Shown: one piece after another, positions 52,236 to 54,344 of the stretch
Numbering within the stretch: the first letter of the stretch is position 1
How the letters are laid out: every line of letters begins with the position of its first letter
NCBI RefSeq assembly: GCF_003334335.1
Contig: NZ_QOWQ01000017.1
Source of the DNA: Escherichia coli
GTDB taxonomy: Bacteria > Pseudomonadota > Gammaproteobacteria > Enterobacterales > Enterobacteriaceae
Length of the DNA: 64,000 nt
Reading direction: 5' to 3' (one strand)
Notes under the pieces: generated by a model
The model's input: the letters and a program-made list of their open reading frames with translations, nothing else
Databases searched by the model: none
Told to the model about the DNA's origin: nothing
Program-made: the position numbers and the translations under genes

Positions 52236-52382
52236 TCATCTGATTTACAAAACACGCTAATTCGTCTTCCATAAACCAAGGCGATTAAGATTTATACATA
52301 ATGCGCTGCATTGAGGAATTCCCTGAATGTGACGCAAATCACTTCAAAGAGTGAGCAACAGTCAGTATCATCATGTGAGTTA

Positions 52383-52417
52383 AACCCTCGCCGCCTGACG
52401 GTGAGGGTTTTCTTTTG
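52383..52417 (+). terminator. rho-independent terminator between rna and rnk
   Basis: aaccctcgcc-gcctgac-ggtgagggtt followed by ttcttttggg. Confidence 0.65.
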
Positions 52418-52464: not shown

Positions 52465-52875
52465 ATGTCCAGACCAACTATCATCATTAACGACCTGGAT
52501 GCCGAACGCATCGATATTCTGCTGGAGCAACCCGCCTATGCTGGTTTGCCAATCGCCGACGCGTTAAACGCAGAGTTGGATCGCGCCCAAATGTGTTCGC
52601 CAGAAGAGATGCCACACGACGTGGTGACAATGAACAGCCGGGTTAAATTCCGCAATCTTAGCGATGGCGAAGTGCGTGTGCGCACGCTGGTGTATCCGGC
52701 AAAAATGACCGATAGCAATACTCAGCTTTCCGTTATGGCTCCGGTAGGTGCCGCACTGCTGGGGCTGCGCGTTGGCGATTCCATTCACTGGGAACTTCCG
52801 GGCGGCGTTGCAACCCACCTTGAAGTGCTGGAACTCGAATACCAGCCAGAAGCTGCTGGCGACTACCTGCTTTAA
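52465..52875 (+). CDS. rnk: regulator of nucleoside diphosphate kinase (GreA/GreB-like C-terminal domain)
   Basis: 136 aa; recognised Rnk. Confidence 0.92.
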
Positions 52876-53105
52876 TCCCATCTGCACAAGCGATAACTCG
52901 CTTTGCCCAGAGGATGCACTCGCATCCTCTTTACGCAAAATCAGCAATTTTTCCTGGTTCTCACTGTTCACTTTTGCTGCAAAATTATTCCGTTTCGTTT
53001 GTGGGAATAACCATGGCAGAAGCATTTTACATCCTGATAGGATTTCTGATTATGGCGGCGATTATCGTCATGGCTGTCCTTTACCTCGAAAACCACTCCT
53101 GACGA

Positions 53106-54344
53106 TCATATTGTTCCCCCCGGCATCGCATTCACCAGACCTGAAACCGCCTTCTGCGCCGCCTCTGCGCTTTGTGCACCGGGTACCAGAATCACCTTAC
53201 GGCACTCCTCTTCACGTTTTTCGAAAATCTCATATCCCCGGGCGGCCTCTTCAAACGGCATATAGTGGGTAACAATTTCTTCTGGTTTCAGTAATCCTTT
53301 CTCAATTAACGGTAATAATTCTCCCAGCCATGCGTGAACGTGGGTCTGTCCCATTTTAAACGACAACCCTTTATCAAAGGCGTCGCCAAACAGGAAACCG
53401 TGAATAAATCCAGCGTAGACGCCCGGTACGCTAACAATGCCGCCACGCCTGACCGCCGCAATACACTGACGCAACGCTTTACCGCTGCTGCCCTCCAGTT
53501 TCAGGTTAGTCAGCACCGTTTCCGTGGTGCTGCCTTTCGCTTCAAAACCGACGGCGTCTATTACTGCATCCACGCCCCGGTGACCTGCCGTTTGTTCAAT
53601 AATTGACTGTGCCGGATCGCTGTCTTCATCAAAATTAATCGGGATCGCGCCGTAGCGGTCGGCGGCGAAATGCAAGCGGTAGGGATGATGATCAACAACA
53701 AAAATCTGTTCCGCACCGAGCAACCGTGCACAGGCGATTGTCAACAATCCCACAGGACCAGCACCATAGACTGCAACGCTTGAACCTTGTTGGATCTGCG
53801 CATTTTTTGCTGCCTGCCATGCCGTTGGCAGAATATCAGAAAGGAAAAGCGCTTTATCATCTGAAAGCAAAGGCGGTACTTTAAACGGCCCCACATTCCC
53901 TTTAGGGACGCGGACATATTCCGCCTGCCCACCAGGAACGCCGCCATACAGGTGACTATAACCAAACAATGCCGCTGGAGCTGGTATCTGTTTTTTATTG
54001 AGCGCAGCGCCTTTACCCGCATTGGTATTTTCGCAGGCGGCATATTGTTGCAATCGACAGAAAAAACAGTCGCCACAAGCAATGACGAACGGAATTACCA
54101 CTCGGTCGCCTTTTTGCAAATTTTTTACGTCCTTTCCGGTTTCAACTACTTCCCCCATAAATTCATGACCAAAAATATCGCCATGTTTAACCTGAGGTAT
54201 TTTGCCTCGATAAAGATGGAGGTCAGAGCCACAGATCGCCGTTGCCGTAATACGCAGAATAATATCATCTGCCTGTTCAACGCCCGGATCGGGAACATTT
54301 TCTACCTGAACGTGATGTGGGCCGTGATAAGTCAATGCTTTCAT
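53106..54344 (-). CDS. ybdR: zinc-dependent alcohol dehydrogenase family protein
   Basis: 412 aa; catalytic zinc ligands (CGSDLH), structural zinc CxxC cluster, GxGxxG NAD fold. Confidence 0.92.

Follow-up and report, generated by a model that had tools for sequence, protein, structure and literature searches.

The segment 53013-53102 on the plus strand of the window, i.e., the whole 64,000 nt stretch of Escherichia coli DNA analyzed here, is almost certainly yldA, a genuine and previously catalogued protein-coding gene. On the basis of its homology with the small membrane protein YoaI, we propose, with a probability of about 0.25-0.4, that the YldA protein acts at the inner membrane by modulating a larger membrane protein, for which a sensor kinase is the most plausible candidate and which it would contact via its conserved C-terminal half and the residue Glu26. 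The gene call itself is not new, yldA having been annotated, named and experimentally detected since 2018, and adds nothing in its own right; the remaining interest lies in the function of YldA, which belongs to the core small proteins of E. coli and is uncharacterised, and its value is in two features, namely the functional parallel between YldA and YoaI and the deep allelic dimorphism of the locus.

The yldA coding sequence consists of 29 codons and a TGA stop, starts with the ATG at 53013-53015, ends at 53100-53102 and encodes MAEAFYILIGFLIMAAIIVMAVLYLENHS; this assignment is supported by the sequence and its translation, by the RefSeq mapping, by the NCBIfam and Pfam models and by Table 1 of PMC6001520. 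A 29-codon ORF running from ATG 53013 to TGA 53102 had already been pointed out in the first-pass annotation, and both the sequence and the translation agree with that reading. Likewise, the end of rnk at 52875 and the 3' end of ybdR at 53106, between which the ORF had been placed, are the same in the ORF list and in RefSeq. The first-pass claim that the ORF is translated into a small protein with a single transmembrane (TM) segment is supported by the RefSeq entry for yldA and by SPA-tag detection of an identical sequence. At this locus, the first-stage reader proved able to recover a validated small membrane protein gene from raw sequence.

The RefSeq CDS of yldA from the K-12 record ("small membrane protein YldA," WP_000796528.1) maps exactly onto 53013-53102, and a 301-nt query spanning the region matches K-12 with 100% identity, with yldA as the annotation beneath the match; the same query has matches in 5423 of 5426 complete E. 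coli genomes. The protein is recognized over its entire length by the NCBIfam equivalog model NF041476 (57.9 bits against a cutoff of 45 bits; residues 1-29 of the 29-position model) and by the Pfam family PF23689, "YldA-like" (70.3 bits, E = 8.9e-20, model positions 1-29). Furthermore, MAEAFYILIGFLIMAAIIVMAVLYLENHS is the YldA sequence reported by VanOrsdel et al. (2018; Proteomics 18:1700064, PMC6001520), where yldA is listed in Table 1 as a 29 aa ORF with ybdR and rnk on either side (NC_000913.3 643330-643419), so that length, strand and place relative to rnk and ybdR are also the same. That table comprises the 36 of 80 small ORFs for which the product, chromosomally tagged with SPA, was seen by immunoblot in LB cultures; 7 of the 36 proteins were detected only weakly, and YldA could belong to either class (PMC6001520).

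The protein is strongly hydrophobic, with a GRAVY of 1.69, and the mean Kyte-Doolittle value of 2.71 over residues 4-25 fits, by hydropathy only, one TM helix. Dozens of database entries of 16 aa (MAAIIVMAVLYLENHS and its point variants) start at an internal ATG of K-12-type yldA, corresponding to Met14 (53052-53102). Other genera do not conserve Met14 but have I, F, L or V at the respective position, and these entries are therefore likely to be artefacts of small-ORF callers. A different annotation issue affects the ortholog from Citrobacter koseri (P0027), which is named "Protein MgtR" in UniRef. We know of no obvious similarity between the Salmonella MgtR sequence and this ortholog, and our guess is that the name is a mis-annotation.

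An ORF of 29 codons in an intergenic region is not, on its own, beyond chance expectation. The yldA ORF rises above chance because it is conserved in other genera, with a fixed length, substitutions in third codon positions and pN below pS. We compared the loci from the second E. coli haplotype (L002), Enterobacter soli and E. asburiae (L003, L004), metagenome contigs (L005-L010) and E. wuhouensis (L011-L014), in all of which rnk is followed by the same hairpin and then by the yldA ORF. Altogether, seven distinct coding sequences were available, from E. coli (two alleles), E. soli, E. asburiae, E. wuhouensis and metagenomes. All seven contain 29 codons, without a single indel, and the position of the stop is constant even as the stop codon itself alternates among TGA, TAG and TAA across the loci. 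In all pairs of these sequences, pN is lower than pS, with omega between 0.12 and 0.77 where dS is unsaturated. The codon-level conservation that had been proposed as a check in the first-pass annotation thus holds with respect to length, pN/pS and third-position pattern alike. The signature is particularly clear in codons 16-26 (AIIVxAVLYLE), where third positions vary in 11 of 11 codons and first and second positions in one codon each. With the variation sitting in these third positions, selection acts on the YldA peptide rather than on an RNA or DNA element.

YldA is a narrow enterobacterial family. A profile search at a threshold of E <= 0.001 yielded only 57 matches among 1.84 billion cluster representatives. 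In the cluster names and in a homology search with the two E. coli alleles concatenated into one query, the members with a taxon name belong to Escherichia, Enterobacter, Citrobacter and Phytobacter, a taxonomic spread that rests on cluster names and fetched contigs and does not imply absence from Salmonella or Klebsiella. A scan of contigs with the YldA alignment confirmed two Enterobacter loci among 266 pattern matches, tblastn being weak for a query of 29 aa.

Within E. coli, yldA was detected in 5423 of 5426 complete genomes, in the form of one of two deeply diverged alleles. Allele 1, the K-12 type with a convergent ybdR gene, is represented in 3605 genomes, and allele 2 in the other 1818. 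Allele 2 (MSEALGITAFYIFIAAIIVAAVLYLEQRW, WP_001287361.1) is encoded between rnk and uspG in a haplotype that lacks ybdR (positions 3088-3381 of L002). The two alleles differ at 39 of 87 nt, with saturated synonymous sites and a protein identity of 52%, yet neither has lost the AAIIVxAVLYLE motif, and length and hydrophobic profile are maintained in both. The dimorphism is not confined to yldA itself, given that the segment of the K-12 haplotype corresponding to positions 52936-54344 of the window and beyond is dimorphic as well. The Rnk protein is identical in the two haplotypes. The presence or absence of ybdR also varies among Enterobacter species, and because the same polymorphism recurs there, the data suggest that the ybdR-side segment is ancient or has been horizontally exchanged. 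A YldA variant of 40 aa, in which the C-terminus is replaced and longer (...AVLYLESKRQRSTVLTLIYW), was found on 94 E. coli contigs (P0011/P0010) and may indicate that the locus has a third haplotype or that a rearrangement has taken place where yldA ends.

Upstream of yldA, on the same strand, lies rnk (52465-52875, plus strand), and this gene order is kept in all 14 fetched loci. The space between the two genes includes a 9-bp GC-rich hairpin (52909-52930, plus strand) that starts 34 nt past the rnk stop, is followed by a short U run and is apparent from both the fold and the alignment. The hairpin had been placed in the first-pass annotation at approximately 52909-52935, with the arms agaggatgc and gcatcctct; the start and the arms are as described there, at 52909-52917 and 52922-52930, respectively, with the loop ACTC, whereas the end is to be corrected to 52930. 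The predicted folding energy is -14.9 kcal/mol (z = -5.1), and none of 200 shuffled sequences folds as well. Six sequences were aligned, from three named species of Enterobacter, the two E. coli alleles and one metagenome contig, and among them only the loop varies, with the stem (GAGGATGC/GCATCCTC) the same throughout; in all six, the hairpin precedes the yldA ATG by 83-88 nt. It also marks the boundary at which the two E. coli haplotypes start to diverge. Because the U run is short, the hairpin was not called an intrinsic terminator in the consensus scan, and it is probably a weak rnk terminator or a 3' stabiliser.

The hairpin bears directly on the question of which start codon is used. As noted in the first-pass annotation and borne out by the ORF list, that list contains only a longer frame, 52914-53102, of 62 aa, the ATG of which is located inside the hairpin. 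On one alternative reading, the 62 aa protein would be the real product and the 29 aa form nothing but its C-terminal part. The frame is indeed open from 52914, and several database entries are versions of 42-98 aa, but there are four observations to the contrary. In allele 2 of E. coli, the upstream frame is blocked 9 codons ahead of the ATG, and in E. asburiae 25 codons ahead of it; the distance between the hairpin and the yldA ATG is 83, 84, 85 or 88 nt, so that at other loci the hairpin ATG reads in another frame; only residues 34-62 are covered by the Pfam and NCBIfam models; and ATG 52914 is buried in the -14.9 kcal/mol stem, with no sequence resembling a Shine-Dalgarno (SD) element. The probability of a 62 aa product is accordingly negligible, and we rejected the frame 52914-53102, the upstream extension of which other loci interrupt by stops or frame shifts.

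By contrast with ATG 52914, the start at 53013 is preceded by an SD-like GGGA (53003-53006, plus strand), a putative ribosome-binding site with a 6 nt spacer to the ATG; its location 7-10 nt upstream of the start had been given correctly in the first-pass annotation. A purine-rich GG(G/A)(G/A)A sequence occurs at the same distance from the ATG in allele 2 of E. coli, in Enterobacter and in one metagenome contig. The minimum free energy fold contains a stem that would sequester this site (UUAUUCC/GGAAUAA, 52986-53010); we discarded it, with z = -0.04 relative to shuffled sequences and no conservation in other alleles.

In the consensus scan, no sigma-70 promoter came up in the interval from the hairpin to the yldA ATG, and it is possible that yldA is transcribed by read-through from rnk or from an unrecognised promoter. 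Two further candidates located inside the coding sequence, a promoter-like site at 53026-53053 and a terminator-like site at 53050-73, are at the chance level for the region and were dismissed. A PhoP/PhoB box perceived by eye (TGGTTC-N4-TGTTCA, 52955-52970) was dismissed as well; it has the wrong spacing and is not kept in the other allele or in Enterobacter. Comparison with Rfam detected no RNA family at yldA, the only one nearby being the cis-regulatory rnk leader upstream. This element (rnk_leader, RF01771; 52311-52419, plus strand; 124.9 bits) precedes rnk and includes a terminator-like hairpin at 52382-52410.

On the other side, yldA faces ybdR, the gene for a zinc-dependent alcohol dehydrogenase (53106-54344, minus strand; coordinates and RefSeq). 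The two genes are convergent, and their stop codons are 3 nt apart (53100-53108); therefore, the transcripts must overlap. The gap between the genes is similarly short elsewhere, 8 nt in the metagenome contigs (L005-L010) and 10 nt in E. wuhouensis (L011-L014), so that the 3-10 nt at these loci leave no space for a terminator. This tight spacing of the stops agrees with the published ExcludonFinder list, in which ybdR-yldA is a convergent excludon, seen in 50% or more of the RNA-seq samples (PMC12288877).

This arrangement of the two genes raises the question whether yldA is conserved for the sake of its neighborhood. The ORF could be translated into a peptide without a function of its own, with the conservation reflecting a nucleic-acid element (the ybdR 3' UTR/terminator region or the rnk 3' UTR) or regulation of a neighbour, for example, transcriptional interference with ybdR. 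The 3 nt between the convergent stops and the excludon listing of the pair fit this possibility, as does the fact that no yldA phenotype has been reported. Nevertheless, such a scenario hardly seems credible to us in view of the third-position substitutions and the almost invariant amino acids 16-26, of the two alleles that differ at nearly half of their nucleotides and still retain length, hydrophobicity and motif, and of the persistence of the ORF where ybdR is missing. A functional peptide is the reading that we retain.

A second possibility suggested by the convergent overlap is that YldA works as a membrane peptide akin to type I toxins, which would be repressed by the antisense 3' end of ybdR and would damage the membrane if over-produced. 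YldA is short and very hydrophobic, transcription of ybdR does overlap yldA convergently, and over-expression of the homologous protein YoaI (see below) results in a prolonged lag phase (PMC11429745). However, tagged YldA is detectable from the native locus in ordinary LB, and yldA is a single-copy, syntenic core gene present in all but three of the complete E. coli genomes. Moreover, it is kept under purifying selection in the E. coli haplotype and in the Enterobacter species that do not have ybdR and in which the supposed antisense partner is, consequently, missing too. Finally, neither an antitoxin sRNA nor any other RNA family was identified at the locus with Rfam, and there was no PADLOC match. 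Taken against these observations, a toxin function is, in our opinion, very unlikely, and we continue with YldA as a candidate modulator.

The principal clue to what YldA might modulate comes from YoaI, a C-in membrane protein of 34 aa that binds the sensor kinase EnvZ in the BACTH assay and raises OmpR-dependent transcription (Vellappan et al., 2025, PMC11429745). Three YoaI residues, Ser26, Val27 and Glu31, are invariant, and the substitutions E31A and E31Q each abolish EnvZ binding along with omrB activation (PMC11429745). Scored with the NCBIfam YoaI model NF041475 (cutoff of 45 bits), allele 2 of YldA reaches 30 bits (E = 4e-7) and K-12 YldA 22.5 bits; being below the cutoff, YldA is therefore not a YoaI equivalog. 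The reciprocal match between the YldA model and YoaI, at 14 bits, is also below the curated NCBIfam cutoff. Our own YldA HMM gave YoaI a score of 11.9 bits, which was equalled by 1 of 5000 full shuffles and by 13 of 5000 shuffles of the TM core.

Similarity scores of this kind are inflated by TM segments, which bears on the YldA-YoaI comparison as a whole; profile-profile alignment with hhalign yielded a probability of 97.4%, or of 95.2% (P = 2.9e-8) without the Cedecea sequence. In the latter setting, none of 300 column-shuffled controls reached the observed score (maximum of 21.8 vs. 32.6). Precomputed annotations of PF23689.3 are found on both YldA and YoaI proteins; the scan with PF23689.1 produced no match to YoaI. 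The Cedecea sequence, a YoaI ortholog from Cedecea davisae (P0048, named YoaI by UniRef; MNDPAFFDTLCITAVFLVIASALVMSVLYLERRW), combines an N-terminus of the YoaI type (MND..F..TL.IT) with a tail of the YldA type (VLYLERRW) and bridges the two families. Judging by these alignments, YldA is a distant homolog of YoaI at the superfamily level. We found no paper in the searchable literature that connects YldA to YoaI, and no experiment on the function, localisation, topology or partners of YldA.

On this basis, the following scheme can be envisaged. YldA would be translated from ATG 53013, with the upstream GGGA as the ribosome-binding site, from a transcript that originates by read-through beyond the weak rnk hairpin or from an unrecognised promoter, and the 3' end of which must overlap the convergent ybdR transcript. 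By homology with YoaI, the protein is predicted to span the inner membrane once, so that a very short stretch at the N-terminus (M-x-E) would reach into the periplasm and the tail (Y-L-E-x-x-x), also short, would lie in the cytoplasm. For K-12 YldA, the topology is not settled by the positive-inside rule because its tail, ENHS, contains no basic residue. Within the membrane, YldA might bind a larger protein, the most plausible partner being a sensor histidine kinase such as EnvZ; the contact would be made by the conserved C-terminal half, AIIVxAVLYLE, with Glu26 in the role of YoaI Glu31.

In its more specific form, which we advance tentatively, the hypothesis holds that YldA might be a functional paralog of YoaI, the second member of a small enterobacterial family of single-pass peptides that dock onto sensor histidine kinases, EnvZ or another, through a conserved juxtamembrane glutamate, here Glu26. 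The two E. coli alleles of YldA might then differ in partner or in strength. If this is true, two-component signalling would receive through YldA an input not recognised so far, which might be osmotic, envelope or fluoride stress. The link between YldA and YoaI, in which the glutamate that binds EnvZ is conserved, makes for a concrete and cheap hypothesis. With regard to expression, yldA belongs to a cluster of 100 genes that show dose-dependent induction by NaF under anaerobiosis, and the same cluster includes psp genes, osmotic-stress genes, phoPQ, rstAB and mgtA/mgtS (PMC10100675).

Compared with known systems, the gene in the window does not differ from yldA of E. coli K-12 and is the same gene. 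More generally, several small modulators, in particular MgrB and SafA (both with PhoQ), MzrA (with EnvZ), MgtS (with MgtA) and AcrZ (with AcrB), are single-pass inner-membrane proteins, from <50 to ~130 aa, that bind a bigger membrane protein (summarized in PMC11429745). YldA would resemble these proteins in general design only, given that no sequence similarity to any of them was found; in this comparison, YldA stands as a protein that is stress-induced, under NaF.

The closest parallel is YoaI. Like YoaI, YldA is predicted to form a single TM helix, and residues 3-29 of YldA align with residues 8-34 of YoaI without gaps, the two sharing E-x-L-x-I-T at the N-terminal edge of this region and V-L-x-x-E-R at the C-terminal edge. 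Opposite Glu31, the residue with which YoaI binds EnvZ, stands Glu26, which is invariant in YldA, and Val27 pairs with Val22, which is present in 17 of 18 YldA sequences, whereas the invariant Ser26 is matched by an equally invariant Ala21, so that the serine is not conserved. Unlike YoaI, YldA lacks the N-terminal extension of 5 residues, MNDQM. The genomic settings are different as well: yoaI is located elsewhere on the chromosome and is under PhoB control, whereas yldA resides between rnk and ybdR.
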